Assembly: GCA_050950285.1 (NCBI GenBank)
Contig: JBMNHG010000003.1
Location: forward strand, 248,001-312,000
Length of the DNA: 64,000 bases
Source: Kiritimatiellia bacterium
GTDB taxonomy: Bacteria; Verrucomicrobiota; Kiritimatiellia; RFP12; JBMNHG01
Reading direction: 5' to 3'
Shown here: one piece after another, positions 1-21,189 of the stretch
How positions within the stretch are numbered: the stretch's first letter is position 1
How the letters are laid out: each line of letters starts with the position of its first letter
Program-made: the position numbers and the translations under genes
Notes under the pieces: generated by a model
Database searches by the model: none
The model's input: only the letters and a program-made list of their open reading frames with translations
What the model was told of the DNA's origin: nothing

Positions 1-743
1 GTCAGGCGCGTGCGGGACACGGAAAGCCCGTTGGTCCGGCCGTCGGCCGTCAGGAAGGAGGTCGCGACGCGCCACCAGACGTTGGAGCGCAGTTCGTAGG
101 TGGTGAGCGACATCGACGCCACGCCGTCGGCCACGCTTCCGATGGCGTCGCCGAGTTCGTCGTAGAGGGGCGTCGCGACGCTTCCGGAGCGGATTTCCGT
201 TTCCGACGCGATGCGGCGCGAACTGCCGTGGTAGGCGTATTCCGTTCGGGAGAGCGGCGTTTCGGAAGCGGCGATGCGCCCGAGGAAGTCGTATTCCACC
301 ACGCTGTTTGTGACCGTGGGAGCGTCGGACGTGGCGAGGGTGGCGATTTCGATTCGCCGCCCGTCCGGGGCGAACGTGGTGGTGGTGCTTGCTTCCGTCC
401 ATTCGCCGTCCCATTCCCGGCGGGTGGTGGAACCGCCGCCGCGCACGGTGCGCGAGGTGGTGCGCATCAGAAGCGCGGAGCCGTCGAAGGTGTCCGTCGT
501 CCGGATGGTTTCAGCGGGGGTTTGGGTGAACGCGGTTTGGGTGACGAGTCCCCGCGCGTCGGTGTGGACTTGGAAGTCGGATATGCCATGGGGATAGCTC
601 GTGGTTTCCGACGCTTCCCATCCGTAGCTGGTTTTGCGAAGCGTTGCGATGTCAATCGATCGCATGAAGTTTATTGCGAATTTTCGCACAACCAAAGCAA
701 CACGTGAAAGTGCTGAAAAAAGCTTAAAAAGTTTAATTTTCAT
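1..743 (-). CDS. Rhs-family fragment running off the left edge: low-GC 5' leader fused in frame to an internal Rhs segment
   Basis: Not in the ORF track. Manual translation from ATG 743 (SD AAGGAGG at 751-757): MKIKLFKLFSALSRVALVVRKFAINFMRSIDIATLRKTSYGWEASETTSYPHGISDFQVHTDARG...YDFLGR...LYDELG...WWRV. This aligns by eye with GFTASETTAYPDGIGDHAVHVDRRG...SDFLGR...LYDERG...WWRV of the 2460-aa Rhs. Confidence 0.8.
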   Translation of the reverse strand, partial: MKIKLFKLFSALSRVALVVRKFAINFMRSIDIATLRKTSYGWEASETTSYPHGISDFQVHTDARGLVTQTAFTQTPAETIRTTDTFDGSALLMRTTSRTVRGGGSTTRREWDGEWTEASTTTTFAPDGRRIEIATLATSDAPTVTNSVVEYDFLGRIAASETPLSRTEYAYHGSSRRIASETEIRSGSVATPLYDELGDAIGSVADGVASMSLTTYELRSNVWWRVATSFLTADGRTNGLSVSRTRL

Positions 744-1023
744 TTCTCAACCTCCTTAATCAGTCGCGAGCCTTTCCTGCTAATGGTTGAGACATTCTTC
801 AAGATGGTATTGCGGCGAAGCTTCACAATCGCAAACTCCCCATTTTTTCATATACAGCGAAACACGAACAATGTCTGAATGTCCGTCAAATGTCGCTTCT
901 GACTGATCGGGAAGTTTTACGCGCCGACGAACTCCCAATTCACCTATTACCCAGATAAGGCTATTGGTTGGGACGGCATCAACGGGCAGAATTATTCCAC
1001 GTCTGTCAACAAGAATGGGGGCG

Positions 1024-2834
1024 CCCTAAACTGCGGGAGATTTGGCGCGAGGGCGTTTCGAAGGGCCGGGAGCACGGTTTGACGGCTGTCGGGAGGGGGA
1101 TCGAAGGGTGCCGGCTCTCCGTCGACGCCCTGCTTGTTCCTTTTCCAGGCGTTTCCAGCCTTGGGGAGGGCGTCGGGCGCCCTTCCAGGCGAAATCCAGG
1201 CAGGCTCCGCCGCGGCCGGGCTGTCGCCCGTCCGTCCGGAGCCGTCCGGTTCCGGCTTTTGCCTCGCGCTACGTCGATTCGGTGGGCTGCACCCGGCAGG
1301 GGAACGCCTCGAGCAGCTCCAGGACGCGCTTCACCCACTCCTTCGGGGCGGCGAAGCGCAGGACGATCTTGCGGCTGAGCCGCGAAAGGCGCGCGCCGGC
1401 CGTCAGCACGTGGAAGCGCACGCCGCGCACGCGCCGCACGCGGTTCTCCGGCTCCGGGTCGGCCGCCCGGAGCGCGGCGGCCATGTTGTAGGCCACCGCG
1501 TTGAGCGCGAACCAGGCCGCGTTGGCCCCGAACTTCTGGCTCGGCGGGCGGGCCGCCGCCAGGTCGTTCTTCATTTCGTCGTGGACGTGCTCGACCGTGC
1601 CCGCCTTCCCGCGGTGCCATTCGACGACCTTTTCGCCCGACTCCGCCCGGTTGGTCGCCACGGCGAAGTGCTTGCGGTCGTTCCCGTCGTCGAAGAGCTC
1701 GCCCTGGGGCTTGAGGAAGCGGAGCCCGATGCAGCGCCGGGGGCGCGCATGCTTGTTCTCGGAGCGCAGGCCGGGGACGTAGTCGAGCTCGGCCCACTGC
1801 TTGAGCGTGCCGTCCGGTTCGCGGTCGAACGTCTTCCACGCATCTTCGGGGACGCGGCGCGCGGCGGCCGCCACTTCCGGGACCATCCGGACGCTGATCG
1901 CGTAGTCGATCCTGCCCCGCGGGCCGCCCTCGCGCTCCGGATCCTCGAGCCAGCCGTACAGGTCGTTGTTGTCGCAGGCGCTGTCGCCGCGAAAGCCGAA
2001 CACGCGCACGCTCGGGGGGAGTTCGGCGAACGCCAGGCGCGCGCAGCGGAGGGGGTCCTTGGAGGCGGGCACGTTGCCGTCGCGGAACTCGGTGGCCAGC
2101 ACCACGCCCGCCTCGGCCCAGACCGCGACCACCGGCTGGTAGCCCCGCTCCCCCGTGTAGGCGACCGTCGCCGAGCGCTTGTTGCTCTCCACGATCGTCG
2201 CGTCCAGGTCGACCGTCGCCACCGCGGGGCTCCCCCCGGGCTGGCGCGCCGCCGCGGCGCGCGCCGAAACCCCCACGACCGCCTGCAGGCCGCGAAGCCC
2301 CTCCGTGGGCTCGGGCACGCTCGACTTCAAGTCCAGCTCGAGCGCCCGCTCCCGCGCCCGCGCCACCGCCTCCGCGTCGTGGAAGCGCTCGAGCCAGTCG
2401 CGAAGGGCGCGGGAGCCCGGCGCCTGGAAGCCCAGCATCTTCGACACCGCCGGATCCCCGCGCAGCCGGTCCACGTCCTCCACGCATCCCGCGCCGAGCA
2501 TCAGCGCGCACGCCGCCGACTCGACGAACTCGCCCGCCGTGAAGCCGAGCCTGATGCGGCGCAGGGCGCCGAGGTTCGCGTCGCACGCCCCGGGAAGCCC
2601 CATGCCGCGGAAGACGCGGGAGGCCACCGCCATGCCGCCAAGGCCGGTCACGGTGCCGGGAACGGGGTCCGGGGAGATTTCGTAGGGGATTTTCCATTGG
2701 GTAGGGGTTTTCGGTCTCATGGGCGCATATTCTATCAAGACAGCCTTGATGAAACAAGCGGGAAATTATCGCCGTTTTCCCGCTCCATTCCAGCACTTCG
2801 GAGACCCTCGCAAAAAATCTCCCGCAAAACAGGG
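1024..2834 (-). mobile_element. IS1380-family insertion sequence, 1811 bp
   Basis: Imperfect terminal IRs CCCTAAACTGCGGGAGATTT / CCCTGTTTTGCGGGAGATTT (reverse complement); 5-bp target duplication GGGCG at 1019-1023 and 2835-2839; sharp GC shift at both ends. Confidence 0.9.
1269..2738 (-). CDS. IS1380-family DDE transposase
   Basis: Motifs VDLDAT, GYQP...EFRDGN, FRGDS, HRGKAGTVEHVHDEMK, PSQKFGANAAW. Confidence 0.88.
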   Translation of the reverse strand: MIEYAPMRPKTPTQWKIPYEISPDPVPGTVTGLGGMAVASRVFRGMGLPGACDANLGALRRIRLGFTAGEFVESAACALMLGAGCVEDVDRLRGDPAVSKMLGFQAPGSRALRDWLERFHDAEAVARARERALELDLKSSVPEPTEGLRGLQAVVGVSARAAAARQPGGSPAVATVDLDATIVESNKRSATVAYTGERGYQPVVAVWAEAGVVLATEFRDGNVPASKDPLRCARLAFAELPPSVRVFGFRGDSACDNNDLYGWLEDPEREGGPRGRIDYAISVRMVPEVAAAARRVPEDAWKTFDREPDGTLKQWAELDYVPGLRSENKHARPRRCIGLRFLKPQGELFDDGNDRKHFAVATNRAESGEKVVEWHRGKAGTVEHVHDEMKNDLAAARPPSQKFGANAAWFALNAVAYNMAAALRAADPEPENRVRRVRGVRFHVLTAGARLSRLSRKIVLRFAAPKEWVKRVLELLEAFPCRVQPTEST

Positions 2835-3191
2835 GGGCGTGATATCCCATGCCACTGTAAATCAATACAAACGAATCGTTAGAGTTGGCAGTAGCCATAT
2901 CAAGTGAATCGTCAACGAAGGTCAATTCAAGTGCGGGAACTTGATTTCCATCGCTACAAGGAAGTTTTCTTTCAGAAACATAACCGGTCCATTTGCCTGT
3001 TCGTTGCGGTGCCATTACACATCCCGAAACAAAAACGACACAAGCAAGATTCAACAAGATTCTTCTTGACACGCCGGTTTCTTCATTGCCAGTCACGGAT
3101 CACCTCGGGTGCTGATTGGACCATGTCGTTAATCAGCAACAGGCAGGACAGCATGAGTATGATAGCTCGATCTGTGGTCGATCTGTTTCCA

Positions 3192-3608
3192 TCAGTCTCC
3201 GTCCCTCTCTTTTTTGCTTCTGTCAATGGGATCAGATTCTAACTCTGATTCCTCGATCTCCGAACTTGAATTTGCCAGTTTCTTAAGGGTTGAACGAAAT
3301 TCAATGGGAGCATGGTCAGAACGCTTGTACTTGTCAAAGAGGCCTGACTCCAAATCAAGAACTACAAAAACTTGTTCTCTTCGGTCAAAGGTGCACAGAT
3401 GATCGGCAACAACCCTCCATTCATCAACATCATTGGCGAGTGTCCTTTGCCGCTGGAAATCATACAGGATTTTTGTGTTTTTTGGTGTGCGTAGAACTTG
3501 AAACCGCCCATCTCGAAAGCTTTTTACTGTATCACGGCCAGATCGGTAGTTCACATCAGAGCACCCTAAAAGAATCAAACTCAACAGAAGAAAAACCAAC
3601 TTTTGCAT
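3192..3608 (-). CDS. Lipoprotein, candidate immunity protein for the adjacent orphan Rhs CT
   Basis: MQKLVFLLLSLILLGC lipobox; starts 12 nt after the toxin stop; low GC. Confidence 0.75.
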   Translation of the reverse strand: MQKLVFLLLSLILLGCSDVNYRSGRDTVKSFRDGRFQVLRTPKNTKILYDFQRQRTLANDVDEWRVVADHLCTFDRREQVFVVLDLESGLFDKYKRSDHAPIEFRSTLKKLANSSSEIEESELESDPIDRSKKERDGD

Positions 3609-3619
3609 AACAGTGCTCC

Positions 3620-4470
3620 TTAACGTGATCGTTGCTCATGTATTGACGCATCCCAACTATAGTTGTTAATCACATCAAAGAACTGATCGGACCAAGCCAT
3701 ATTATTGGCGATAGTCCCTAGAATTTGTTCAAGATCCCACGTGAAATACTGTCTTGTAAGAAGGTGGAAATTGTAATCATCATGAATGGTAATGTGGAGA
3801 TCCATGTCGTATGAAGTATCTGATCGCTTGCAAACCCAACCAGTGTAATCAAAAGATGCGGCATGAATCGCTGCAAACAGATCTCCTGTAGTGAAAGCAA
3901 TAGAATCGGCTGTAACATAGCCTTGGTATCCCACCTGTTGATTTCCGACTATCTCCGAAAGTTTGTTTTCATACTCGGCAGAATCAACTATTGCCATGGA
4001 AACAAAATGATGTTGATCGAAATGTAGATCGGTAGGGCTGTCTTGCAAAGAGTGGTTCAAAAGGAATGCCGCTACATTCCATCCGCGTGGCTGCAGAACC
4101 CGCGACATCACTTCACGCCACAGTCTACGAGCTAAAGGCGTAAGTCCAGGGACACGAATTGCACCCAGCAAATCAATAGAATTAACAGGTTCATTCCCTA
4201 TGAACGCATAAAGATTTGCGCCGCCCCATTCCTCAATCGGATCACGATTGAGCCACCGCGTCAACTCCGGTGCGCAGGTGCGCGACCAGTGGAAACCTGA
4301 CGAGGCGGACATGCCCGAAATAAGATCCGAGTCGGTGAGATAAGAGTACGTGCCGGTAGCCGCAGATGTCGCAGATGACGCAAATGCAAGTGATTGGAAT
4401 CGGCGGGACATGTTGTAAGCATACGACATGGAGTAGCCTTCGTCGAGGGCATAACAGGACAGGGCATACC
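3620..4470 (-). pseudogene. Orphan Rhs module 4 (short core end plus C-terminal toxin domain)
   Basis: [37 protein letters not shown] followed by a ~180-aa low-GC CT. 5' boundary approximate. Confidence 0.8.
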
Positions 4471-4892
4471 CTGACGGATGACTGGATGAGACGCAGGTGC
4501 TATGGAACGGTTGTCTCATCTTGATCGCTACTAGCAGCGCTGGTAGCGTCTTCATCCTGTATTGTTCTGGCCAAGCTACCCGCATTATTGTCCAGCCCGG
4601 CAACGATCTGTTTTGCTCTTTCAACTTTTTTCGCAAACAAACCTTGGTTAAACGTGAATCCATTGCGGTTCAACTGCATAGCCTCCACTCTTTCGCCGTG
4701 TTTCTCCAGAAAAGCAAGCTTTGCATAGATCAACAGCCGTATTGATTGTTCCGAAGCAACACGTATATCGACATTAGTCGGGATGTTCGTTCGCATATCA
4801 TAAAGTTGGAGACAGATACCAAGATCAAACGGAAGCCTTTTACATTCGGCATCTATGTGTCCGCGTTTATATCCAACATTATAAACGCAAAT

Positions 4893-6466
4893 CACTAGCA
4901 TCCCATAGGCTTGCCGAAATCACTCCTGCCTTCCCCCATTGGAAGTCAGCGCACGCGCTCAAGACGGGAGCGTCGGGCCGGATTGAAAAAAAGGGCTGAC
5001 CTCCCGGCCGTCTGCCTGTAGCCTACAGGCATTATGAAAAAAAAAGCGACCAAGGCGCGTAAACGCGCAACCAAGAGGCCAGCGAGAACATCGTACACCA
5101 CCCTGCGCCAGATCGTCCAGTGGATTCCCGCGGGATTGCCGGACAAGATCGCGCGCGACATCGGGGCGGACATCCGCGGATTCTCCTGCGCCAGCCATGT
5201 GCTGGCGCTGCTCTACGGCCATATCGCCCGCGCGGGCAGCCTGAACGAGATCTGCGACGCGGCCCGGCTGCACGAGCCGGAGCTGAACCGCATCCGGGGC
5301 GCGACGGCCCCGAAGCGCAACACCTTCTCCAACGCCAACCGGAGGCGCGACCCGGAGATCGCGGAGCGGCTCTACTGGGAGGTGTTCGAGCACCTCCGGA
5401 CCATCTGCCCGTCCTTCACGCAGTACAAGAAGCACAAAGGCTTCATCTTCCGCCTGAAGCGCGGGATATTCGCCATCGACTCGACCACGCTGAAGCTCAC
5501 GCTCGACTCGATCGACTGGGCCAGGCACCGCCGGAAGAAGGCCGCCGCCAAAACCCACATGGCCCTCGACGTCGGCAGCAGGCTGCCGACGTTCGCGGTC
5601 GTGGAGGACGCCGCGCACCACGACTCGACGCGGGCGGACGCGCTGTGCGCGGGGCTGAAGGACGGCGACGTGCTGCTGGCGGACCGCGCCTACGTCGACT
5701 TCCTCTTCCTGCACGGACTCGCCGCGCGCGGCATCTTCTTCGTCCTGCGGGAGAAGGAGAACATGGACTTCGAGGTGCTGGAGGAGAGAGGGCATCCGGA
5801 CCGGCGCATACTCAAGGACCAGACCATACGCCTGCGGGGCAGGCTGACGGCGGGAAAGTACCCCGGGCCCCTGCGCCGCGTCGCCGCCGTCGTCGAGGTG
5901 GACGGGCAGGATCGGGAAATGACGTTCATCACCAACCATTTCGCGTGGAGCCCCCGCACCGTCTCCGAGCTCTACCGCGCCCGGTGGGTCATCGAGTCGT
6001 TCTTCAAGGAACTCAAGCAGACGCTCCAGCTCAAGGATTTCGTCGGGTACAACGAGAACGCGGTCAAGTGGCAGGTCTGGGTCGGGCTGCTGGCGCATCT
6101 GCTGCTGCGCTTCCTCAAGCACGTCTCGGAATGGGGACTGAGCTTTTCCCGGCTCGCCGGGGTCGTCAGGTCCGCCGTCTGGATGAAGATCGACCTGCTC
6201 GACGCCCTGCGGAAGTATGGGACAGCAGGCGGCCCAAAGCGCCCTGTAATTTCCGGGAAACAGCTCTATTTCCAAGGATTCGAGCCATTCGCGAGCCGGC
6301 CCGTGGGATAGCACATGCCCCAAAACCCCTGTTTTCGGGCATCCGGGCCGATCGCGCAGGCAAACACGTTTTCCGGGAACGCCTTTGAAATCGCGATAAA
6401 TCCCTGCAAATCAATGGGGGAAAGGGGGCAATATGCCCGTTTTCAGCCGCCTATGGGATGCTAGTG
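4893..6466 (+). mobile_element. IS4-family insertion sequence, 1574 bp
   Basis: Perfect 18-bp IRs CACTAGCATCCCATAGGC (4893-4910) / GCCTATGGGATGCTAGTG (6449-6466); 9-bp target duplication AACGCAAAT at 4884-4892 and 6467-6475. Confidence 0.93.
5034..6311 (+). CDS. IS4-family transposase
   Basis: AIDSTT, KTHMALD, LADRAYVDF and the YREK signature YRARWVIESFFKELKQ. Confidence 0.92.
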   Translation: MKKKATKARKRATKRPARTSYTTLRQIVQWIPAGLPDKIARDIGADIRGFSCASHVLALLYGHIARAGSLNEICDAARLHEPELNRIRGATAPKRNTFSNANRRRDPEIAERLYWEVFEHLRTICPSFTQYKKHKGFIFRLKRGIFAIDSTTLKLTLDSIDWARHRRKKAAAKTHMALDVGSRLPTFAVVEDAAHHDSTRADALCAGLKDGDVLLADRAYVDFLFLHGLAARGIFFVLREKENMDFEVLEERGHPDRRILKDQTIRLRGRLTAGKYPGPLRRVAAVVEVDGQDREMTFITNHFAWSPRTVSELYRARWVIESFFKELKQTLQLKDFVGYNENAVKWQVWVGLLAHLLLRFLKHVSEWGLSFSRLAGVVRSAVWMKIDLLDALRKYGTAGGPKRPVISGKQLYFQGFEPFASRPVG

Positions 6467-6592
6467 AACGCAAATCACGATAAGCATAGTAAATGTCGAA
6501 ATCGTAATGCATTTGTAAACAAGACGTCTGTCACGCATTTTTGCACCTCATAACCAAACGAAGCTCACCTTGAGTCTTCCTGCCCTTACAAC

Positions 6593-8052
6593 CTAGTTAC
6601 ACGGATCATCAGGCCATTCTCCATCGTCTTTTGACGACGGTCTGGTAGCATCAATTTCATCGGCCAGTATCAGCGCGTCTGACTTTGCGACAACGTACCC
6701 TAATGTATTTTTTAACAGCTCTTGTGCCGCCTCCGCCAAAATTTCACCAAGCGCTTCGCCAAGTGATATGGGATTCGGTAGTGAAAGCGGCAATTCCGCA
6801 GGCGAATAAACAAATATTACTGGTATCATGCGCGCGTGTTCCACTGTCTTGTAGACTGTTTTAGTCTTCTTCACCGTCCACAGCCCAAAACAATAAACAC
6901 AACAACACTCCACATTCCCTTTAAGGCCCCAAGTAACTTCTACGCCCTCGATCTGCGTAATGAAAGATGATCCGCCACCAGATTCAAAAGTTAGTCCAAT
7001 AACTTCCCATTTGGCATTCTCGCTTACGCTTGGTCCCGCTGCCAAAACACATTTATTCCCAACAGGATCGATCACGTTAACGAATACATTGCGTCCGGCC
7101 AGATATAAGTTGGCTCCACCCCTCTCTCCAATCGGATCACGATTGAGCCAGCGCATCAGTTCCGGCACGTAGAAACGATAACCGTAGTAGTAGAGACCGG
7201 TCTCGGTGTCGTAATACTTGGTGCTGAAACGGTGGCGGAAGGCGTCGGCCATGGAGCCGGCAGCCTCAATGGTGCGCCCGAAGGCGTCGTAGGTGTACTC
7301 GGCCACGATGGCGCCGGTCTCGTCAACATAGGCTGTGATGTTGCCGTTATTATCGTAGAACGGGAAGTACCATGTGCCGCCCATCTGTACCGCCAGGAGT
7401 CCGCCGACACCGCCCGCGCCCTGGAGCGTGCCGGATAGGTCCTTGCCCCAGACGTAGTGGTTGGTGGTCACGCCCGAGGCGGTGGCGACGATTTCGAGAA
7501 CCGGCAGCCAGCCGTCGTAGACAAATCCCCGTGTCTCCGCGCCTCCGCGTGAGATTTTCAACACGCGGCGGCTAAGATGATCGTAGGCGTTGAAGACTAC
7601 GCACAGGCCGTTGGAATAGGCGGCGACGAGGCGGTTTTCCGCATCATACGCATAGCTGAAACGCCCCGTCCCACGTCATATTGCCGTCTAAATCGTATAC
7701 GGGAGAAATTTGGACAGGATTGACATGATTGACATGATTGGAAATCAGGAAATACTGGTTCAGTTCGTTGGCGGTGTAGATGTTCGTGACGGAGTTAAGC
7801 GAGGCCCACAGCGCGTTGCCTATGTTGTCGAAGGCGTAGCGGTTGGTGTGGGCTCCAATGTCCGCCGCCGTGACTTCGCTTCTGGCGTTGTAATCGAAGG
7901 TGTCCGTGTTGCGTGAAGTGACACGGTTAAGCAGGTCGTAGGTGTAGACCAGCGGGTTGTACGGCACGCCGCTGACGCTGTTGGTGATGGTCGTGACAAG
8001 GGTACGACGGTAGGGATCGCGGGCGACAACGCGGGAGAGGAGCGTGCCGTTG
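6593..8052 (-). pseudogene. Orphan Rhs module 3 (long core segment plus CT), frameshifted
   Basis: ORFs 7644-8135 and 6593-7564 join if one C is removed from CCCC at 7664-7667; the intact Rhs has CCC at the equivalent site (WDGRFSYAY). Core ends [17 protein letters not shown]...IDPVG. Confidence 0.85.
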
Positions 8053-8100
8053 GCGAAGGAGTTAACAGCATTTCGACCAGCTTTCATCACGTTGAGAATA

Positions 8101-8745: not shown

Positions 8746-8747
8746 AA

Positions 8748-9690: not shown

Positions 9691-9720
9691 GCGCACCGAC
9701 CGGGGAGGTGATTACAACTG

Positions 9721-10248
9721 CTATAGCTCCGCTGGCTCATCGCGATCACAATTTCTTGCTGATTTCTGGGGTGATTGCGACGCCCCGCTGCATTCTGGAA
9801 CTCCAAATTCCCGCTGCCCGCTGTCTGCTTGAAGTGTTATTTCATGATACGGGACAATTGGCGATGGGCTACGTGCCCATTTTTCATACTGGACAGCAAA
9901 GCAATAATCTTTGCGGTCGAAATAGAACGTTCCGCGGTATGACCATATTCGCCCCTTCTGTTTAATTGTGATAGACGACCAATAGACGCGATTCGTTGCA
10001 TCCGATAGATAATACACGTTTCCTGGATAGCTTGGAATAGCCCGCCCCATGCTGCAGCGTTCTTTTTTCTCAATTATTGAACAAGGGAGTTGATGCATCA
10101 AACAATCAAAATGCACCCCTCGTTTTGCAAGGTAAATATATGGACGTATATCAGGATTGTCACACAATGAATGTCTGCTACATGCGAACATGCAACAAGC
10201 CCCCAGCAAACTTCCAAAGAGTGCCACATGAAAGTGTGTTCGCATCAT
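9721..10248 (-). CDS. Candidate cognate immunity protein of the full-length Rhs, with signal or lipoprotein-like N-terminus
   Basis: SD GGAG, then MMRTHFHVALFGSLLGACCMFACS; directly downstream of the Rhs stop; low GC. Confidence 0.7.
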   Translation of the reverse strand: MMRTHFHVALFGSLLGACCMFACSRHSLCDNPDIRPYIYLAKRGVHFDCLMHQLPCSIIEKKERCSMGRAIPSYPGNVYYLSDATNRVYWSSITIKQKGRIWSYRGTFYFDRKDYCFAVQYEKWARSPSPIVPYHEITLQADSGQREFGVPECSGASQSPQKSARNCDRDEPAEL

Positions 10249-10267
10249 GCATTCTCCGTAGCAAGGG

Positions 10268-13200
10268 TTAGTAAACAATAGTGAAGGATAAAGTTGAGCA
10301 GACCTCGCCATTTTCACTCACTTCAACGGTATAGTTCGAAGCGAATGGCGATTCGTACTGTTCAACAAACTGGGTAATCCAGTAGTCATATGCGGAACCA
10401 CCTCCGGCATTAAACACAACCTGCCATGCGTGTTCCTCTGTAACTCCCGCTTGGCTCTTTATTCTGACAAGGGGTGTGTATGGTAAATCATTAACAGTTC
10501 CTGCTCCACATTCGCAATGCTCAGGATCATACTTAACAATACCATCGAACCAATTCTTCGGGGTTACAGCCACAGAAACCCACATGATTCTATCAGTATG
10601 ATTGACACCAAATAATCCTTTGTGTCTTTCGGAGTACGGATATTGCATTCCGCCAGACACCCTGACATAGTTGTACTCCGCAGAAAGGACATTCTTCCAA
10701 TTGCATCGATACACCACATCTACCGTCCAGTTAAAGCAATGGCACAGATTCTCCAACCCGAGCCAATCAACAAATGAAAACGAGTTGTTATCGACGAAAG
10801 CATATATGTTACAACCGCCGTTCTCACCAATCGGATCCCTGCTAAGCCACCGCATCAATTCCGGTGCATAGAAGCGATAACCATAGTAGTAGAAACCGGT
10901 TTCGGCATCGTAGTACTTGGTGCTGAACCGGTGGCGGAAGGCGTCGGCAAGCAGACCCGTTGCCTCTATGGTGCGGCCGAAGGCGTCGTAGGTGTACTCG
11001 GCGACGATGGTGCCGGTCTCGTCGGCATAGGCCGTGATGTTGCCGTTGTTATCGTAGAACGGGAAGTACCATGTGCCGTTTAGCGAGACGGCCAGCAGTC
11101 CGCCGACGCCGCCCGCGCCCTGAAGCGTGCCGGATAGGTCTTTGCCCCAGACGTAATGATTTGTGGTTGCGGACTGCTGATTTTGAATCGTCTCCTGAAC
11201 CAGGTTCCAGCCGTCGTAGATGCAAGTGTACGTGGCGGTGGGGGTGTATTTCAACACGCGGCGGCTAAGATGATCGTAGGCGTTGAAGACTACGCACAGG
11301 CCGTTGGAGTAGGCGGCGATGAGGCGGTTTTCCGCATCATACGCATAGCTGAAACGCCCGTCCCACGTCATATTTCCGTCTAAATCGTACTCCGGCTCGA
11401 TGACTGTTCCATTGCTGATTCCGGTGTACTGGTTCAGTTCGTTGGCGGTGTAGATGTTCGTGACGGAGTTAAGCGAGGTCCACAGCGCGTTGCCTATGTT
11501 GTCGAAGGCGTAGCGGTTGGTGTGGGCGGGCTGGATGATGGCGGATGTGACCTCGGAGCGGGCATTGTAGTCGAAGGTGTCGGCGTTTCGTGACGTGACG
11601 CGGTCGAGGAGGTCGTAGGTGTAGGCCAGCGGGTTGTGCGGCACGCCGTTGACGCTGTTGGTGATGACCGTGACAAGGTGGCGGCGGTAGGGGTCGCGGA
11701 TGACGGTACGGGAGAGAACTATCCCGTTGGTCTGCGTGATGGTGTATCCGGCGTCCCAGGCGTCATCAGTATATGCGTAGCTTGCCGAAAAGGCATCATT
11801 CGAGACGGCGGAGTGCCGGTTCTCGGAGTCGTAGCCGTATTGAACGGGTGGCGCATCCTCGACGCGCAACGCCGCCAGGCGGTGGCGGTGGTCCAGGGTG
11901 CGGGCCAGGGTCGCGGTGTCGCCGCCAACCATGGCCGTCTCGTTGGTGGCGGTGCCGAGGTGGCTGTTCTGGTAGGCGTATCGCGCGACGGCGTTGGAGG
12001 CAAAGGCGGGGCGCTGGAAGGCATCGTACCCGAGCGCGGCGGCAGGCGTGGCGTCGGAGTACGAGACGCCTGTCAACAGCCCGTCGGGGTTGTAGGCGTT
12101 CTCCTTCCACGCTCCGCGAGCCCATGCCGTGCGGAGCGGCTTGCCGTCGGGGGTGTGCGTATAGGACACTGCGGAGCCGTCGGCGTAGACCTTGTTGGTG
12201 GCAAGTCCGGTGGCGTGGTCGTAGTTCCAGGCGGTGAGATCGAGGGACGCAGGGGACGCAAGGGATGCGAGGGACGCGCCTCCGGCAAGCTGGACGGCGA
12301 GGGCGGCGAAGCCGACGGCGTTGCCTCGGGTGGTGGCGAGGGCGGCCATGCGGCCGGCGGTGTCGTACCCGTAGGCCACGGGGTAGGCCGCGCCGGTGGC
12401 GGCAACCGGACGCCCGAGGGCGTCGTAGGTGTTGGTGACGGTGTTGCCGAGGGCGTCGGTGCGGGACGTTTCGCGGCCGAAGGCGTCGAAGGTTCTCGAT
12501 CCTGTGACGTGCAGATCGTCGTCGTAATAATAAATGCCGTAGTGGGTCTCGTTGTCGGACTCGTCGAGTCCCGACCAGCGGAAATGGGAATAGACGCCCG
12601 TTTCAGGGTCGCGCGTTTCCGAGTATGCAACGCGCCCGAGCGGATCGAAATAGTTGTAAACGGTTTCGCGCAGCGTCTCGCGGCGAATTGGACGCCCGAA
12701 CTTCGAGACGGTGGTGGATGGCGTCGCCGCATCGGTGGCGCGAACCATCGTCAGTTCGCAAGTCTGCGGGTTGTAGCTGCCCGATTCCGTCGTCGTCGAG
12801 CCGTTCGGGCCGGTGTTCACCGTGCGGCTCCGCAGGGCGTTGGAAAGCCCCGTCAACTGGCGGCGGGTCGTCGCGACGGCGTTGGTGACGCCCTCGCGCG
12901 ACGTGCTGCGGACGTCCACCCGCCACCATGCCCCGGCGATGTTCTCGTAGCGGGTCTCAGACGCGGTCTCGACGCCGCTTTGGACGGTCGCCGCCATCTC
13001 GCCGCGTTCGTCGTAGAGGTAGGTCGTGGCGGGCTGTCCGGTCGTTTCCGAGCGAACCAGGCGCGAGGTCGCGCCGTCGTAGGCGTTCGAGGTGACGAGC
13101 CAGGCGCCCGCAGTGCCGGGCCTCAGCGTCGCGACCGTGCGCCCGAGGAAATCGCTGTGCGAAATTTGATTCGTGACCGCGTTCGGTGAATCGGACGCCT

Positions 13201-16200
13201 CGGTGACGGAGAAGGATCGCCGTGTTCCGTCGGCGGCGTAATCGCTCCACGAGGTTTCGCGCGTCCAGCCGCCGTCCCAGCTTTGGATGGCGATGGAACG
13301 CCCGTTCCGGTAGGCGATGTTCGTGCTCGCCACGACGCAAACGTCGGGGTTCGCCGGCGAGAACGTCAGGCTGACGCTCTCCTCGCGGTCGGCGTGCGAC
13401 GTGCGCGTCGTGACCGTGCGAACCCCGCGCCGGTCGACGTGGACGGCGTGGTCGCCGATTCCGTCGGGGTATGCCGTCGTTTCGGAAGCCGTGAAGCCGA
13501 GCGTCCCGCAATCGGGGGTGGCGGCGCTTCCGGGCTCGCCGACCGCCGTCACGACGGTGTTGGTCTCCCTGCCGATGGCGTCCATGAAATGCATCGTCGT
13601 GCGATGACCGTATCCGTATCCGGGCAGATCGGCAAGCGATTCCTCTTCTATGGCGTAGTAGAGGTGGTCTTTGCCGGTTTCGGCGGAGCGGAGGGTCTTG
13701 AAGCCGTCGCGATCCTGCGTCCAGAGCAGGCGGCAGCAGGAGTGGGCGTTGGTGGAGATGGAGCCGTCGGCGTAGAGCGTGGAGCGGAGGCGGTTCTTGT
13801 CGTCGTAGAGGTGCGCCTGCCAGTCGAGCGTCTCACCGGTGGCGTGAAGGAGGGTGGCGGAGTAGAGCGTCGTGCCGTGCGCGGCGTCCTGGATGGTCAG
13901 GTCGGACGTATCGGACGGATTGGACTGATACCAGCGTTGGGCGATCGTGCGGAGCGCGGTTCCAGAACCGCCGGGGGCGAAGGTGCGGGTGGCGGGGTCG
14001 TAGTCGCCGAGGGCGTAGTCGTAGGCGGTGGTCACGCCGTCTTCGTCGGTGGATTCGAGCGGGCGGCCGCGCAGGAGCAGCGGGATGCCGGGGGCGTCGG
14101 CGTCGAAGCGGGTGGATGTCGAGACGGCGTTGCCGGGGTCGCCGAAAGCGGCGTCCGGGGAACAGGCGCGGACCGTCTTCACGGTCGCGAAGGCGCGGCC
14201 CACCGTGTCCGTGCCGACGGTATGGACGTGCCACGTGCGCCCGATGCACGCCGCCGCGCCGTCGCGGACGAGGTGGCGCGACTCGGTGCGGACGGAATCG
14301 AGGGCGGCGAGCGGATTGTCGTCGCCGGGCAGCGGCGCGTAGTCGGAGACGGTGGCGATGGCGGTGATAGCGGGGAAATCGGACAGATCGGACAGATCGG
14401 TCGGATCAGACTGATCGGCGAAAGCCAAGGGAGCCTCCGAGCCGTCGAATTGGTCGAGGCGCAATATCTCGCGGCCTTCGTCGTCCCAGGCCTGGTAGCT
14501 CCAGGGTCGCGACTCGCCCCAAACGAGGCGGGGGCGTCCGTTGCGGCGGGGGTGGGCGTCGTCCGTCCAGCAGGTGGCGTGGTCTTCGACCAGGCCGGGT
14601 TCGCCGCCGGGCTCGAGGCCGAGCGTCGCGTGGTAGGTCTGGCGGAGCGTCGCGTCCTGCCCGCAGCCGAAGCGCCGGGACTCGGCGATGTCCCGCGAGA
14701 GGATCGCGCCGGCGGCGTCGCGCACGATGCGTTCCTCGCGGAGGACGCCGTGGGGGCCGTCGTCGAGCGTGTCGGTGCGAAGCACCTGTTCGGAAAGTTG
14801 GGAGATGTTGTCGAAGCACGCCCACTCCCCATCCCCACGATATGAGTAGACGACGTCGCGCATGACGTTGTCCCGGCGGCTGATCTTCTTGAACGCGACT
14901 TGGCGCGGGCTCCCGCCGACGTTGGCGATCTCCCAGACGTGCTCCAGTTCGTCGCCGGCGGTCTTGCGGACGGTGATCCGGACGCCGTGGGCGATCGGTT
15001 CGACGACGACGGTGCGGCCTCGGGCGTCGGAGCAGGCGATGGTGCGGGTTCCGCCGGCGGCGCTTTCGGCGACGGCGGCGTCGTCGCGGGCGAGCAGGTT
15101 GAAGGTGGAGGGCGCGACGAGCAGCGGCTCCGTCGCCCGGAACCAGAGGAAGCCGGAGACCTGGCCGTCGCGGGGGATCCCGAGGGGGATGCGGAAGGCG
15201 AGCGAGCCGAGGCCGTCGCCTTCGAGGCCGTCGCAGTCGCCGTCGGCGCATCCGGACGCGCAGTCGCCGCATTCGTCGTAGAAGGGGTCGTGGCATCTTT
15301 CGCCGACGCGGTGGATGGCCTCCCCGCTCCAGACCGGCCTGCCGTCGAAGAAGATGGTGCCGGTGGCGCGAAGGCCGTCGTCTTCGACGGTTTCGTCGAA
15401 GTACGCGGCCAGCGCCGGGTCGCCGTAGCCGATTTCGGCCCTGCAGTCGCACGGGTGGCCGCCCGTGGCATCCTGCCGCCAGCCCTCCCGGAGGCACCGG
15501 CTGTCGAGGGGGTAGTCGGAAGCGGGCTCGTAGTCGCCCGTCGCGGCGTCGAAGAAGAGCGTGGTCCCGCATCCGCCGTGGCGGCCGTCGCCGTAGGCGA
15601 TGCGGGGTTCGAAGAAGAGGAGGCGTTCGACCGGGCCTTCCCCGGGGTCGTCCCTGCCGCCCGCGCCCCGGGCGCCCCGCCGCGCCGGGGGCGGCGCGGG
15701 GGCGATCGTGCATCCGGGCACGTCGTAGATGCCGGGCGCCTTCGCCGCGAGCGAGCCGCCCGTGAAGCCGCCGTCCGGCGTGAAGGCGAGGCGGGCTTCG
15801 CCGGGGAACGGGTCGAGGAGCGCGGCCTGTTCCATCTCGGAGGGCGCGGCGCGGCAGGGGCGGTTGGAGAAGTCGTACCGGACGCCGACCGACGTCCCGC
15901 CGCCCGTCCATTCGACGGCCTGGCAGCGCGCGCCGTTGATTTCCGCCGCCGCCCCGGCGCCGCCCACGAGGACGCCCGGCGCCCAGGCCAGCAGGTACAG
16001 CGGCTGTGGGCAGGTCGAATTCGTCGAGGTGGCGCGGAGCGCGAGGGTCAGTTGCAGCGCGTTCGTCGAGACGGGGAGCCAGAGGCTGTCGTCGGGCGGC
16101 GAGGCGGTCGCGGTGCCGCAGCCGCCTTCGGAGTCGGCCCACTCGAGCGCCATGCCGTCGAGCGACCAGCCTGCGGGCGCATTCGAGGAGGCGGAGAGGA

Positions 16201-17650
16201 AGTACTGCTGCCAGCCGCCTTTGCGGTCGATCGTGAAGGTGCGCTCGTACACCCGGTTCGTGCCGTCGGCGGGGAGGTCGCACCGGAAGGCGTCGAAGAG
16301 CTTGAGGGAGGCGAGGTTCCAGGCGAGGTTCGTCGGAGCGGAAGCCTCCGCGAAGGGGTCCATGCCCGCCGCGATCTTCGTCGAGAGCGGGAAGCCGGTC
16401 CCGCCGGGGTCGAAGGCGAGGCTGTCCACCGCGTTGGTGCCGCCGAACTTCGCCGTTTCGCAGGCGTCGGGGATGCCGTCGCCGTCGAGGTCGTCGGGCG
16501 GCGTCGGGGACAGCGGGTCGGGGTCGGAGCCGTCGACGAGCCCGTCGCCGTCGGTGTCGCGGAGCAGCGGACTCGTTCCGGCGGCGACTTCGGCGCCGTC
16601 CAAAACGCCGTCGAGGTCGGTGTCGGGCAGGCGGGGGTCGGTGCCGTGGACCATCACCTCGTCGCAGGTGGAGAGCCCGTCGCCGTCGTGGTCGGCGACG
16701 TCCGGGTCGAGCATGCCGAAGGCGCGCCAGTGGAGCTCGAGGCCGTGGACGAGGACGCCCGTGCCGCCGAAGGCGAAGGTCTCGCCGCCGCCGCCGTGCT
16801 GGGCGCCGACGACCCAGTTGGTGGCCGGCAGCGCGTTGGTGGCGGACAGCCGGGACAGGTCGTAGCGGTAGACGAAGTCGCCGGAGGGGAAGAGTTCGGC
16901 CTGGAAGGTGACGGGGAGGCCGGCGTCGCGTCCGGCGAAGACGTCCTGCCAGGCGAGGAGCAGGCTGTTGGAGGCGGTCGGGGCGTGCCAGAAGCGTCCG
17001 GCCGGCGGGACGATGCCGAGGGAGGTCTGCAGGGGGGCGAGGAAGTCGAGGCCCGAGCCGTCGGGCATCCGGCGGGCGCGGGGCGAGCCCTTGGGCCAAC
17101 CGAAGGAGAGCGTGCCGCTGCTGGAGACGTGCAGCCCCCCGACGCGGTTGGTGCCGAGGGTGAAGGACCAGTTGGTGGCGGGGAGCCAGAAGGTGTCCTC
17201 GGCCACCCCGTAGCGGGTCCAGGGGGCGTGGACGACGGCGTTCGACGGGACGGAGGCCAGGGCGGGAGACGGGTTGGTGGCGACGCGCGCGAGCGCGAAG
17301 CCGGCCCGGTACTGGCCGGCGGTCAGGCGGGGGCCGGAGGAGGGGCCGCGCGCGGGCCGCGCCGGGAGGCCGCCGGAGACCATGCCCGCCGGGGGAGGGC
17401 CGTGAAACAGGGCGTTGCCGCCGGGCGGAACCTTCGGGACGCCGTGCAGGGTGGCGACCACCAGGAGGGCGGAGAGCGCCGCCCTGACGGAGGGCGCAAG
17501 CGAGCGGAACCGGTCGCCGAGAGCGCGGAAGAGGCGGCGCAGGCCGGGCGACGTCCCGGCCCAGGCGCCGAGGCAGAAGAGCAGCGGCACGCCGGCCAGC
17601 AGGCAGGCGCCCGCGAACATCCAATGGCGTATCGACTGCAGGAGTCCCAT
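10268..17650 (-). CDS. Full-length Rhs/YD-repeat polymorphic toxin, 2460 aa
   Basis: Two hydrophobic N-terminal segments; DxDGDG (TSP3-like) repeats; many YD repeats; Rhs core end RWLSRDPIGENGGCNIY...VDWLGL; low-GC Cys-rich CT. Confidence 0.93.
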   Translation of the reverse strand: MGLLQSIRHWMFAGACLLAGVPLLFCLGAWAGTSPGLRRLFRALGDRFRSLAPSVRAALSALLVVATLHGVPKVPPGGNALFHGPPPAGMVSGGLPARPARGPSSGPRLTAGQYRAGFALARVATNPSPALASVPSNAVVHAPWTRYGVAEDTFWLPATNWSFTLGTNRVGGLHVSSSGTLSFGWPKGSPRARRMPDGSGLDFLAPLQTSLGIVPPAGRFWHAPTASNSLLLAWQDVFAGRDAGLPVTFQAELFPSGDFVYRYDLSRLSATNALPATNWVVGAQHGGGGETFAFGGTGVLVHGLELHWRAFGMLDPDVADHDGDGLSTCDEVMVHGTDPRLPDTDLDGVLDGAEVAAGTSPLLRDTDGDGLVDGSDPDPLSPTPPDDLDGDGIPDACETAKFGGTNAVDSLAFDPGGTGFPLSTKIAAGMDPFAEASAPTNLAWNLASLKLFDAFRCDLPADGTNRVYERTFTIDRKGGWQQYFLSASSNAPAGWSLDGMALEWADSEGGCGTATASPPDDSLWLPVSTNALQLTLALRATSTNSTCPQPLYLLAWAPGVLVGGAGAAAEINGARCQAVEWTGGGTSVGVRYDFSNRPCRAAPSEMEQAALLDPFPGEARLAFTPDGGFTGGSLAAKAPGIYDVPGCTIAPAPPPARRGARGAGGRDDPGEGPVERLLFFEPRIAYGDGRHGGCGTTLFFDAATGDYEPASDYPLDSRCLREGWRQDATGGHPCDCRAEIGYGDPALAAYFDETVEDDGLRATGTIFFDGRPVWSGEAIHRVGERCHDPFYDECGDCASGCADGDCDGLEGDGLGSLAFRIPLGIPRDGQVSGFLWFRATEPLLVAPSTFNLLARDDAAVAESAAGGTRTIACSDARGRTVVVEPIAHGVRITVRKTAGDELEHVWEIANVGGSPRQVAFKKISRRDNVMRDVVYSYRGDGEWACFDNISQLSEQVLRTDTLDDGPHGVLREERIVRDAAGAILSRDIAESRRFGCGQDATLRQTYHATLGLEPGGEPGLVEDHATCWTDDAHPRRNGRPRLVWGESRPWSYQAWDDEGREILRLDQFDGSEAPLAFADQSDPTDLSDLSDFPAITAIATVSDYAPLPGDDNPLAALDSVRTESRHLVRDGAAACIGRTWHVHTVGTDTVGRAFATVKTVRACSPDAAFGDPGNAVSTSTRFDADAPGIPLLLRGRPLESTDEDGVTTAYDYALGDYDPATRTFAPGGSGTALRTIAQRWYQSNPSDTSDLTIQDAAHGTTLYSATLLHATGETLDWQAHLYDDKNRLRSTLYADGSISTNAHSCCRLLWTQDRDGFKTLRSAETGKDHLYYAIEEESLADLPGYGYGHRTTMHFMDAIGRETNTVVTAVGEPGSAATPDCGTLGFTASETTAYPDGIGDHAVHVDRRGVRTVTTRTSHADREESVSLTFSPANPDVCVVASTNIAYRNGRSIAIQSWDGGWTRETSWSDYAADGTRRSFSVTEASDSPNAVTNQISHSDFLGRTVATLRPGTAGAWLVTSNAYDGATSRLVRSETTGQPATTYLYDERGEMAATVQSGVETASETRYENIAGAWWRVDVRSTSREGVTNAVATTRRQLTGLSNALRSRTVNTGPNGSTTTESGSYNPQTCELTMVRATDAATPSTTVSKFGRPIRRETLRETVYNYFDPLGRVAYSETRDPETGVYSHFRWSGLDESDNETHYGIYYYDDDLHVTGSRTFDAFGRETSRTDALGNTVTNTYDALGRPVAATGAAYPVAYGYDTAGRMAALATTRGNAVGFAALAVQLAGGASLASLASPASLDLTAWNYDHATGLATNKVYADGSAVSYTHTPDGKPLRTAWARGAWKENAYNPDGLLTGVSYSDATPAAALGYDAFQRPAFASNAVARYAYQNSHLGTATNETAMVGGDTATLARTLDHRHRLAALRVEDAPPVQYGYDSENRHSAVSNDAFSASYAYTDDAWDAGYTITQTNGIVLSRTVIRDPYRRHLVTVITNSVNGVPHNPLAYTYDLLDRVTSRNADTFDYNARSEVTSAIIQPAHTNRYAFDNIGNALWTSLNSVTNIYTANELNQYTGISNGTVIEPEYDLDGNMTWDGRFSYAYDAENRLIAAYSNGLCVVFNAYDHLSRRVLKYTPTATYTCIYDGWNLVQETIQNQQSATTNHYVWGKDLSGTLQGAGGVGGLLAVSLNGTWYFPFYDNNGNITAYADETGTIVAEYTYDAFGRTIEATGLLADAFRHRFSTKYYDAETGFYYYGYRFYAPELMRWLSRDPIGENGGCNIYAFVDNNSFSFVDWLGLENLCHCFNWTVDVVYRCNWKNVLSAEYNYVRVSGGMQYPYSERHKGLFGVNHTDRIMWVSVAVTPKNWFDGIVKYDPEHCECGAGTVNDLPYTPLVRIKSQAGVTEEHAWQVVFNAGGGSAYDYWITQFVEQYESPFASNYTVEVSENGEVCSTLSFTIVY

Positions 17651-20438: not shown

Positions 20439-20446
20439 GGGCTGGA

Positions 20447-20530
20447 AAGGTATCCCACACGCCCCCGCGTTTCAAGAAACAATTCACCGTCCGCGAACAA
20501 TTGCACCCTGCAACGGTTCCATGGTATCCT
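20447..20530. promoter_or_regulatory. Divergent sigma70-like promoters for iorA and rfbC
   Basis: Minus strand: TTGAAA-17-TACCTT, 8 nt before the iorA ATG. Plus strand: TTGCAC-18-TATCCT with upstream TG, 6 nt before the rfbC ATG. Confidence 0.5.
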
Positions 20531-20536
20531 GCCCCC

Positions 20537-21100: not shown

Positions 21101-21189
21101 CCGCGGACGCCGCGTCCCGCCGTCTTCCGCGCCCGTCCTCCGTCCCCCTTGAGTCACCGGATTTCCATTTCCCCCCGACAGGAGCCGTC

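Follow-up and report, generated by a model that had tools for sequence, protein, structure and literature searches.

A probably Sec-exported Rhs polymorphic toxin family with a two-helix leader in a Kiritimatiellia genome without detectable contractile-system genes

Background

WapA of Bacillus subtilis, a Sec-dependent, wall-associated Rhs/YD toxin of a monoderm, takes part in contact-dependent competition together with a cognate immunity gene; it carries wall-binding repeats, and its known C-terminal domains (CTs) are tRNases that act in the cytoplasm. It is the closest experimentally studied analogue of the system described here, an array of Rhs polymorphic toxin genes at the beginning of a 64,000-nucleotide stretch from a Kiritimatiellia bacterium (assembly GCA_050950285.1, contig JBMNHG010000003.1, positions 248,001 to 312,000 of the forward strand). 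This whole stretch is referred to as the window, and positions are counted from its first letter. An earlier note, made from the letters of the window, had inferred from the array a Sec-exported, surface-tethered class of Rhs proteins aimed at the periplasm or envelope. We followed up this reading computationally in the window, in the source genome (4.05 Mb in 12 contigs, approximately 66% GC, 99.35% complete), and in metagenomes.

Sec-type export of shell toxins is already in print. Passages of Zhang et al. 2012 (PMC3482391) define a 'T2SS/Sec-dependent' export class (T2SS, type II secretion system) that includes proteins with RHS repeats, and describe lineage-specific constant N-terminal domains (MafB/MAFB-N, Microscilla-N, and APD1/2) as likely anchors. 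According to passages of Raoelijaona et al. 2026 (PMC13018210), bacterial teneurin-like proteins (TLPs) are Sec-targeted YD-shell toxins whose delivery route is unknown; they are defined by FN-plug, NHL, and YD-shell profiles, and the exit of shell toxins from diderms without a type VI secretion system (T6SS) is given there as an open question. Since these two papers, in the passages drawn on here, cover Sec-exported Rhs/YD-shell toxins, the system is less new than the earlier note implied, although its reading of a Sec-exported class aimed at the envelope gained support from the T6SS-free genome, the charge pattern of the leader, the envelope-type CT families, and the exported ORFs (open reading frames) downstream of the CTs. 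In the literature, we found no prior description of this Rhs family in Kiritimatiellia or other PVC bacteria; the single paper found that mentions both Kiritimatiellia and Rhs deals with a different protein.

With a probability of roughly 0.6 for the package as a whole, we conclude that the array belongs to a T6SS-independent, Sec-type Rhs family, in which a hairpin leader would direct export, the CT would act on the envelope, the immunity proteins would be exported, and CTs would be exchanged by cassette replacement.

Results

The intact gene of the array occupies positions 10268-17650 on the minus strand, is an unbroken ORF for an Rhs/YD-repeat protein of 2460 amino acids (aa), and is the sole intact Rhs gene of the array in the window. 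Its product matches RHS_repeat (PF05593, 51 bits) in Pfam as well as YD repeats (YD_repeat_2x; TIGR01643, 48 bits). The Rhs-associated core (Rhs_assc_core, TIGR03696) was found at aa 2221-2299 with 78.3 bits (cut-off 32.5), and its end coincides with DWLGL (aa 2295-2299), where the first CT begins; sequence matches to the core end in the Protein Data Bank (PDB) are Rhs and TccC shells of solved structure, for example, 7q97, 8uy4, and 4o9x. These repeats and core-end/CT features place the locus among the Rhs polymorphic toxins. The PAAR (PF05488), SpvB, TcdB-mid, TPS/Haemagg_act, and WXG100 domains of Pfam are absent from the 2460-aa protein.

The protein starts with a hairpin (aa 1-75, positions 17426-17650, minus strand), delimited by alignment and hydropathy, which consists of a first helix at about aa 9-31 (H1), a basic loop, a second helix at about aa 50-69 (H2), and the end HG-VPKVPPGG. 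We compared the hydropathy of this leader in nine aligned sequences, including the window protein, family members from metagenomes, and a distant paralogue. All nine follow one plan: an N-terminal tail with 0-1 K/R, H1 of approximately 20-22 residues, a net-positive loop, H2 of approximately 18 residues, a small residue with G[ST]KP (VPKVPPGG in the window protein), and a P/S/A/G-rich linker of varying length. The loop of the window protein contains five K/R versus one D/E. By the positive-inside rule the loop would be cytoplasmic, and all parts past helix 2 would thus be outside the cytoplasm; from hydropathy and this rule, we infer that the Rhs body is placed there. The n-h-n-h-c layout of the leader is reminiscent of the extended signal peptides on very large passengers of type V secretion systems. 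Other Rhs families of the genome, such as those at C2:944576 (2065 aa) and C3:373271 (1845 aa), start with ordinary signal-peptide-like N-termini. The earlier note had named a match of the N-terminus to a T6SS prePAAR/transmembrane module as an observation that would speak against its reading; the prePAAR motif is AARxxDxxxH ahead of transmembrane helices, and a pattern search of aa 1-200 gave no match, so that the reading withstood this check.

The remainder of the N-terminal region resembles the ectodomain of an extracellular protein. We predicted the structure of aa 1-1010 with AlphaFold2 from a 30-row alignment (mean pLDDT 74.6). In this model, helices at aa 2-31, 35-49, and 53-68 have a low pLDDT of 39-73; they are followed by disorder (68-109), beta structure (118-310), a thrombospondin type-3 (TSP3) coil (about 315-430), beta-sandwiches (440-800), and the shell, from about aa 810. 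On the DNA, always on the minus strand, the P/G/S/A-rich linker (aa ~76-109; 17324-17425), variable in length among homologues and with a pLDDT below 50 for aa 68-109, precedes a conserved beta-sandwich domain (aa ~110-312; 16715-17323), which is delimited by invariant or near-invariant columns and by the strands of the model at aa 118-310. This domain has no Pfam match even at E<=10, and a suspected likeness to NIDO domains was dropped, as Pfam gave it no support. Asp-rich repeats of the bacterial TSP3 type follow (aa ~315-400; 16451-16708; invariant D/G columns at 320-395); TSP3_bac remains below the cut-off in the window protein (17.6 bits), and PF18884 is on record for many homologues. Then come a beta-rich middle region (aa ~440-800; 15251-16333), with a Cys-rich stretch ahead of GSLxFRIPLG, and the YD/Rhs shell (aa ~810-2299; 10754-15223), which closes with the Rhs-associated core, DPIG...DWLGL.

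Fold comparison of the 1010-aa model gave weak matches, with VIA Z-scores of 7.2 or lower. In VIA, aa 810-1010 align to the Rhs cores 8qjc (Z 6.8) and 8qjb (Z 5.6), and aa 812-985 to the TLP structure 9ifo (Z 5.8). Further matches were those of aa 135-335 to GH65-type N-terminal beta-sandwiches (Z 5.7-6.1) and of aa 440-560 to GOLD/CUB-like sandwiches (Z ~5.5). Foldseek returned only weak multi-domain ectodomain matches (TM-score <=0.16). In aa 450-1000, neither NHL nor any other Pfam family was found even at E<=10, and no propeller was among the fold matches of the model, a search that single domains can escape at such a length.

The N-terminal module is repeated throughout the source genome. 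A tblastn search with the first 330 aa found 15 loci at 94-100% identity, in addition to a fragment at a contig start and a distant paralogue at 41%. Twelve of the 15 loci run into an Rhs core, and the other three share the first 381 aa only. An uninterrupted frame is present in four of the 12 Rhs loci (2460, 2541, 2529, and 2495 aa). Between paralogues the first ~380-1170 aa are 94-98% identical, and the shells are down to 50-69% in several; this mosaic suggests gene conversion of the N-terminal module or a strong constraint on it. Upstream of the start codons, the 15 paralogues have only ~30-600 bp in common; thus, no accessory gene travels with the family. The same module also heads non-Rhs proteins, both in the source genome and in metagenomes. 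The proteins at C2:801552, C2:806453, and C8:550681 (1266, 1192, and 830 aa) have only the first 381 aa in common with the Rhs family, and their bodies match no Pfam family; non-Rhs bearers from metagenomes, for example, P0008 and P0010, are 56-59% identical over 86-89% of the first 460 aa. This occurrence on non-Rhs proteins fits a general module for export or presentation. The distant paralogue (contig C6:46001-66000, local 5701-10017, minus strand) is a protein of 1438 aa with TSP3 repeats and the same two-helix leader. Genes for a GspD-type secretin and a PilN-like protein (local 12795-15944, minus strand) lie ~2.8 kb upstream of it, with a pseudouridine synthase gene between; this proximity was not taken as evidence.

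The earlier note had proposed a genome search for T6SS and type VII secretion system (T7SS) genes. In the source genome, we found no PAAR, VipB/TssC, Phage_GPD (VgrG-type), Hcp, or Phage_sheath_1 match, with positive controls for each, and WXG100 was absent as well, the genome being 99.35% complete. It contains one ShlB/TpsB-type gene (72 bits) on contig C11, far from any Rhs locus, and six secretin genes, which indicate a diderm with several T2SS or pilus-type systems. In an even sample of 201 genomes of the class, the N-terminal domain occurs in eight and TssC in three, with no overlap.

The cargo of the family is diverse. A query with the core end found 58 places in the genome, at which the CTs diverge directly after the junction. 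Outside contig C12, which carries a variant of the array (see below), 46 CTs of at least 60 aa were grouped into 38 clusters and 29 families. Four of the 29 families have a Pfam match above the cut-off, namely, a Tle1-like phospholipase (131 bits), a GDSL lipase (48.8 bits), Tlde1 (38.3 bits), and AMOP (31.1 bits). Among the 120 best core-end homologues, whose named sources are Kiritimatiellia, the only CT families on record are Tae4 (three proteins), Colicin_M (two), and Tox-WTIP (one). Membrane lipids, peptidoglycan, or lipid II are the targets of the enzymes in these two lists, and no nuclease, deaminase, or ADP-ribosyltransferase family was found among the recognised CTs of the 29 families and the 120 homologues. 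The AMOP match (cut-off 25 bits) is that of an orphan CT just outside the window (C3:239420-241429, local 1-507, plus strand); AMOP is an extracellular domain, chiefly from animal proteins.

The ORFs that follow the CTs point in the same direction as the recognised cargo. For each of the 38 CT clusters, we took the first same-strand ORF of at least 60 aa beside the CT, and scored it as positive if a start in the first 50 codons gives a 12-residue uncharged stretch with a mean hydropathy of at least 2.2 within the first ~40 residues. Twenty-five of the 38 were positive, 10 of them with a lipobox, and two of the 38 clusters had no such ORF; the background was 321 of 1370 (23%) crude high-GC3 ORFs of the genome (binomial p 3.5e-8). 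The rule misses Imm1 of the window (see below) and a few cases in which the wrong ORF was chosen, and among the negatives are three cassettes that belong to a different Rhs family, as well as two sites disrupted by insertion sequences (ISs). Exported immunity proteins are the rule for T6SS effectors that act in the periplasm. In the collection of Zhang et al. 2012, in the passages used here, Imm65 is the only immunity family with a lipobox (PMC3482391), and by that yardstick the export bias in this genome is unusual. Taken together, these family assignments and export signals support a direction of both cargo and immunity genes at the envelope.

In the window, core-end+CT modules with small low-GC genes follow 3' of the intact Rhs gene, all on the minus strand of positions 1-17650. 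They constitute a downstream store of displaced or alternative cassettes, each with its small gene. After CT1 (10271-10753, 161 aa), orphan 1 (approximately 8748-9629) has ~70 aa of core end, the junction DPLGL, and CT2 (8751-9374, 208 aa). Orphan 2 (6593-8135) has a core of ~480 aa that is divided between two frames (7644-8135 and 6593-7564), the junction DPVGN, and CT3 (6596-7054). Its core is ~82% identical in DNA to that of the main Rhs gene, and its frame is broken near 7564-7664; at position 7664 most metagenome contigs differ from the window by one base, with a depth that is dominated by paralogous cores. Orphan 3 (approximately 3620-4306) has ~50 aa of core end, the junction DLLGA, and CT4 (3623-4159, 179 aa). 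A further orphan core fragment (1-1023) runs off the start of the window and, after another ~2.2 kb of the contig, reaches a DFLGL junction.

What the earlier note had reported for the array was borne out, with some corrections. The intact Rhs gene and the three same-strand orphan modules were all located; the four CTs differ past the DxxG junction and are mutually unrelated, each a singleton among the 29 families; three of them are Cys-rich (6 Cys in 161 aa in CT1, 4 in 208 in CT2, and 6 in 153 in CT3, against 1 in 179 in CT4); a low-GC gene follows each CT (GC of CTs and downstream genes 0.43-0.48, with 0.45 for CT1, versus 0.67 for the Rhs gene); and the 17 other large ORFs of the window contain, by Pfam, no PAAR, VgrG, WXG, or TpsB domain and no secretion gene. 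Its description of the array has to be amended in that the core of orphan 2 is broken, the fragment at 1-1023 was left uncounted, and the array exceeds the window. Similarly, its five immunity candidates with a hydrophobic or lipobox start all have such a segment, Imm3 being judged from its form on contig C12, but two of them are disrupted by ISs.

These candidates have the position expected of the cognate immunity genes of Rhs toxins, a small low-GC ORF 3' of each CT, and their immunity role is putative. All lie on the minus strand. Imm1 (9721-10248), 175 aa from the second Met, was found by an N-terminus scan to have a lipobox pattern with Cys at 18; it contains 10 Cys and matches no Pfam or NCBIfam family. 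Imm2 (8101-8745, 214 aa) has a signal-like N-terminus without a lipobox and leucine-rich repeats (LRRs) of the internalin type (LRR_4, 31 bits); one 239-nt contig from an RNA library (X20) covers 8231-8467 within it, which is too weak as proof of transcription. Of Imm3, the 3' part lies at 4500-4895 and the first ~20 codons at ~6479-6538, across an IS, as seen by comparison with contig C12, where alone the intact gene is found (ORF 7118-7573, 151 aa, with an N-terminal transmembrane anchor). Imm4 (3192-3608, 138 aa) has the lipobox LLGC, and the 5' part of a fifth ORF with a lipobox (VSGC) lies at 2879-3096.

The four CTs of the window themselves gave few clues, with no Pfam match at E<=10, no NCBIfam family, and no PDB sequence match below E 0.08 for any of them. 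CT1 was modelled as an all-beta Ig-like sandwich (AlphaFold2, pLDDT 88.5, pTM 0.82). A search of 1.84 billion representative proteins gave only nine relatives, and four of these nine are Rhs C-termini. Its residues 85-151 match 58 stretches of the 5647-aa metagenomic protein P0122; thus, part of CT1 is a repeat unit of a giant protein. Foldseek matched nothing to the CT1 model at E<=0.001, VIA gave Ig-like sandwiches as the best matches (Z<=7.1) with no enzyme among them, and the ESM Atlas gave no usable match; going by the model, CT1 may not be an enzyme. A complex prediction for CT1 with mature Imm1 scored 0.15 (mark 0.32), which counts neither in favour of binding nor against it. For CT4, four homologues were found, every one on an Rhs protein and without a functional clue. 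The nearest cluster in the ESM Atlas was 'Colicin M domain-containing' (score 0.95; recognition 1475), a lead that was given up, as both BLASTP against the CT of the Colicin_M-bearing protein P0137 and Pfam at E<=10 were negative. No similarity was found between CT4 and the CT of P0117.

Two ISs interrupt the array. An IS4-type element (4884-6466, plus strand; transposase 5034-6311, DDE_Tnp_1 96 bits, DUF4372) lies in the 5' part of Imm3, and an IS1380-type element (1024-2877, minus strand; transposase 1269-2738, DDE_Tnp_1_4 99 bits; boundaries from C12) cuts the fifth ORF. Contig C12 (18.3 kb) is a variant of the array, 97-100% identical to the window at -8234 to 11928, with different IS positions: it lacks the IS4-type element, has another element inside CT3 at window position 6860, and has a different element at the site of the IS1380-type element. 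It may represent either a strain variant or a second locus, for instance, the rest of an Rhs gene that is cut off at the end of contig C4. The IS-free junction, in which 4883 is joined to 6467, also occurs in contigs of two other metagenomes (X11 and X3), with 232 and 18 letters, respectively, on the shorter side; therefore, the insertion at 4884-6466 is polymorphic in nature. Other junctions with a side of under 30 letters, for example, 7156 to 9490, were left out of account. The stretch from CT1 through Imm1 and CT2 to Imm2 (8101-11100) was represented by 0.6-0.97 of the sampled words in 14 metagenome runs from 14 different studies, on bioreactors, anaerobic digesters, biogas, and landfill, two of which are possibly source samples. 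Such near-identical stretches across the metagenomes of many studies indicate that the system is in use in real communities.

The remainder of the window contains genes for 2-oxoacid:ferredoxin oxidoreductase subunits, glycoside hydrolases, a LacI-type regulator, and phosphoglycerate kinase. A 2028-aa ORF at 20359-26445 (plus strand) has a coding-type GC3 of 0.87 and no Pfam family at E<=1e-4.

Discussion

The proposed sequence of events is as follows. The two hydrophobic helices would insert in the cytoplasmic membrane with the basic loop inside, and Sec would move everything past helix 2 across, that is, the linker, the beta-sandwich, the Ca-binding TSP3 repeats, and the YD shell enclosing the CT. 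The protein would stay anchored by helix 2 or be cut after the conserved small residue, and the constant N-terminal module would present the shell at or beyond the envelope; our guess for the outer membrane is a route via one of the six secretin systems. Freed by the DPxGL aspartyl autoprotease of the shell, the CT would act on the envelope of a neighbour, on membrane lipids, peptidoglycan, or lipid II, and the cognate lipoprotein, periplasmic protein, or membrane protein from the downstream gene would protect the producer. Orphan cassettes would replace the expressed CT through recombination in the shared core end. A bolder version, which we regard as tentative and somewhat doubtful, is that the conserved module represents an undescribed export-and-presentation pathway of diderm bacteria of the PVC group, by which entire Rhs shells would pass the envelope with no contractile machine and toxins would reach only the periplasm of the neighbour. 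If true, this pathway would be a new form of contact-dependent antagonism, and would explain both the envelope-limited recognisable cargo and the mostly exported immunity genes.

Several observations weigh against the proposed Sec-type, envelope-directed family. No route across the outer membrane of the producer was identified, and the check for Por_Secre_tail, a marker of the type IX secretion system, is void because its control matched nowhere. The topology is deduced from hydropathy and the positive-inside rule, and the modelled hairpin has a pLDDT of only 39-73. Outside the four intact Rhs loci, one has an in-frame stop, six have at least one frame change each, and one runs off its contig; the broken loci could be pseudogenes or assembly errors. 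As for the cargo, 25 of the 29 CT families and 114 of the 120 homologues are without a CT family on record, so that a restriction to the envelope rests on few cases, and for the four CTs of the window no family, PDB sequence relative, or convincing fold match was found. The 58 matches of the C-terminal half of CT1 to a giant protein would suit a binding module no less than a toxin, and the conserved Cys of CT1 (CxC, HCxC) could bind metal instead of forming disulfides. Thirteen of the 38 downstream ORFs were negative in the strict export test, and this test is crude: the clusters are related rather than independent, and the background is a home-made gene call.

That no outer-membrane route was found also agrees with a different view, in which the Rhs protein stays cytoplasmic or inward-facing, leaves by lysis or a holin/endolysin-type release, and inserts its helices in the membrane of the target. 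T6SS prePAAR effectors are known to have transmembrane segments that do their work in the target, and the hairpin, with an H1 of ~22 residues, is not a canonical short signal peptide. The TLP paper (PMC13018210) refers in a passage to Type 10 release for Tc toxins. We nevertheless consider release by lysis distinctly unlikely, for the charge distribution puts the loop, not the body, inside, the body consists of TSP3 repeats and beta-sandwiches that are typical of extracellular proteins, and the other Rhs families of the genome begin with signal-peptide-like segments of the ordinary kind. The features of CT1, an Ig-like sandwich without an enzyme match and related to a giant-protein repeat, together with the AMOP domain in one CT family, the adhesin-like N-terminal part, and the LRR protein Imm2, would suit a device mainly for adhesion or kin recognition, as in teneurins and the Rhs proteins of social motility, or one aimed at non-bacterial cells, with CTs that are partly binding modules. 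This alternative we hold to be unlikely, in view of Tle1, Tlde1, GDSL lipase, Tae4, and colicin M at the same position in paralogues and homologues, and of the pairing of each cassette with a small gene, as in toxin-immunity systems.

The family might instead belong to the TLPs described in 2026, with which it has a common logic (a Sec-type N-terminus, adhesion domains, a YD shell with a polymorphic CT, an immunity gene, and no delivery machine) and to one of whose structures, 9ifo, aa 812-985 align with Z 5.8. However, this match is to the generic shell and falls below that to the T6SS Rhs core 8qjc (Z 6.8); Pfam detected neither NHL nor any other family in aa 450-1000, no propeller is among the fold matches of the 1010-aa model, a search in which single domains can be missed, and the six phyla with TLPs that are given in passages of PMC13018210 do not include the phylum of this genome. 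Membership of the TLPs seems very improbable. We give hardly any credence to a missed contractile or two-partner delivery by a T6SS, an extracellular contractile injection system (eCIS), or the single TpsB. The assembly is split into 12 contigs and does have the ShlB/TpsB-type gene on contig C11 (72 bits), but searches with positive controls found none of five independent contractile markers in a genome that is 99.35% complete, the TpsB gene lies on a different contig and near no Rhs locus, the N-terminus has no TPS/Haemagg_act match and is modelled as a beta-sandwich, not a beta-helix, and not one genome of the class sample has both the N-terminal domain and TssC.

If the Sec-type family with envelope-only cargo holds, the cargo spectrum would be a read-out of the delivery depth, and the unassigned pairs of CTs and immunity genes would be a source of new envelope-targeting activities. 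With a constant module on a dozen shells, 29 CT families, mostly exported partners, and no contractile system, the genome is a rich natural data set, and it is a good place to attack the question of how Rhs toxins are delivered independently of T6SS.

Comparison with known systems

The locus is not that of a T6SS PAAR/prePAAR effector, a Tc toxin, a TpsA protein, or a T7SS toxin, because the defining features of these systems were looked for and were not found. With the T6SS Rhs effectors RhsA, Tse5, and Tre23 (sequence matches to PDB 7q97, 8cp6, and 7pq5), it has in common the core with a DPxGL junction, the arrays of orphan CTs and immunity genes, and the N-terminal hydrophobic helices, which in that group are those of prePAAR effectors. 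Tle1, Tae4, and Tlde1 are classic families of periplasmic T6SS effectors. In place of PAAR, a prePAAR motif, and T6SS genes, there is a long N-terminal region of extracellular type, and no VgrG/Eag-type gene is conserved upstream among the paralogues, although DUF1795 (Eag) itself was not searched for. The cocoons of TcB-TcC (core-end matches to PDB 4o9x, 6h6e, and 4igl) similarly have a YD shell, an autoproteolytic core end, and a variable CT. The window protein differs from Tc toxins in having no SpvB or TcdB-mid domain (TcA was not searched for), and the arrays of immunity genes point to bacterial targets. Unlike TpsA-TpsB and contact-dependent inhibition systems, it has no TPS match, its N-terminal domain is a beta-sandwich, and the only ShlB-type gene of the genome is on contig C11; unlike LXG/WXG toxins of the T7SS, it comes without WXG100 in the genome or the protein.

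The resemblance to WapA lies in an Rhs shell toxin on what would be a Sec route without a T6SS. The host of WapA has no outer membrane, whereas the host in this case, with six secretins, is a diderm, and the recognised CTs act on the envelope. With the TLPs, as characterised in passages of PMC13018210, the family shares a YD shell enclosing a polymorphic CT, an N-terminus that would be of Sec type, N-terminal domains of adhesion type, a (candidate) immunity gene directly downstream, and no recognisable delivery machinery. It differs in that no NHL, FN-plug, or TIP was detected by Pfam or by fold comparison, in which the beta-sandwich domains at aa 440-800 have weak generic matches, and in its phylum. 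According to the same passages, TLPs are mostly encoded by one gene per genome, whereas there are about a dozen paralogues and dozens of orphan cassettes here, and TLP CTs include nucleases and ADP-ribosyltransferases that act in the cytoplasm, none of which were recognised among the CTs here.

The family likewise resembles the Sec-dependent class of Zhang et al. 2012. As far as passages of PMC3482391 define it, the class is characterised by features that the sequences of this family appear to have: an N-terminal signal or transmembrane segment, no other trafficking domain, and a constant module, which is 94-100% identical at 15 loci. Shared with it are a signal-type N-terminus, a constant domain that is confined to a lineage and multiplied within one genome, RHS repeats, CT cassettes, and the anchoring role proposed for the constant domain. 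Set against the same passages, the two-helix hairpin leader, the size of the constant module (~380-800 aa, with TSP3), and the mostly exported immunity candidates are distinct. What is new here is apparently the combination of a two-helix leader and a large constant module, a dozen paralogues with 29 CT families in a diderm without T6SS, and cargo and immunity genes pointing to the envelope, a combination apparently of the Kiritimatiellia.

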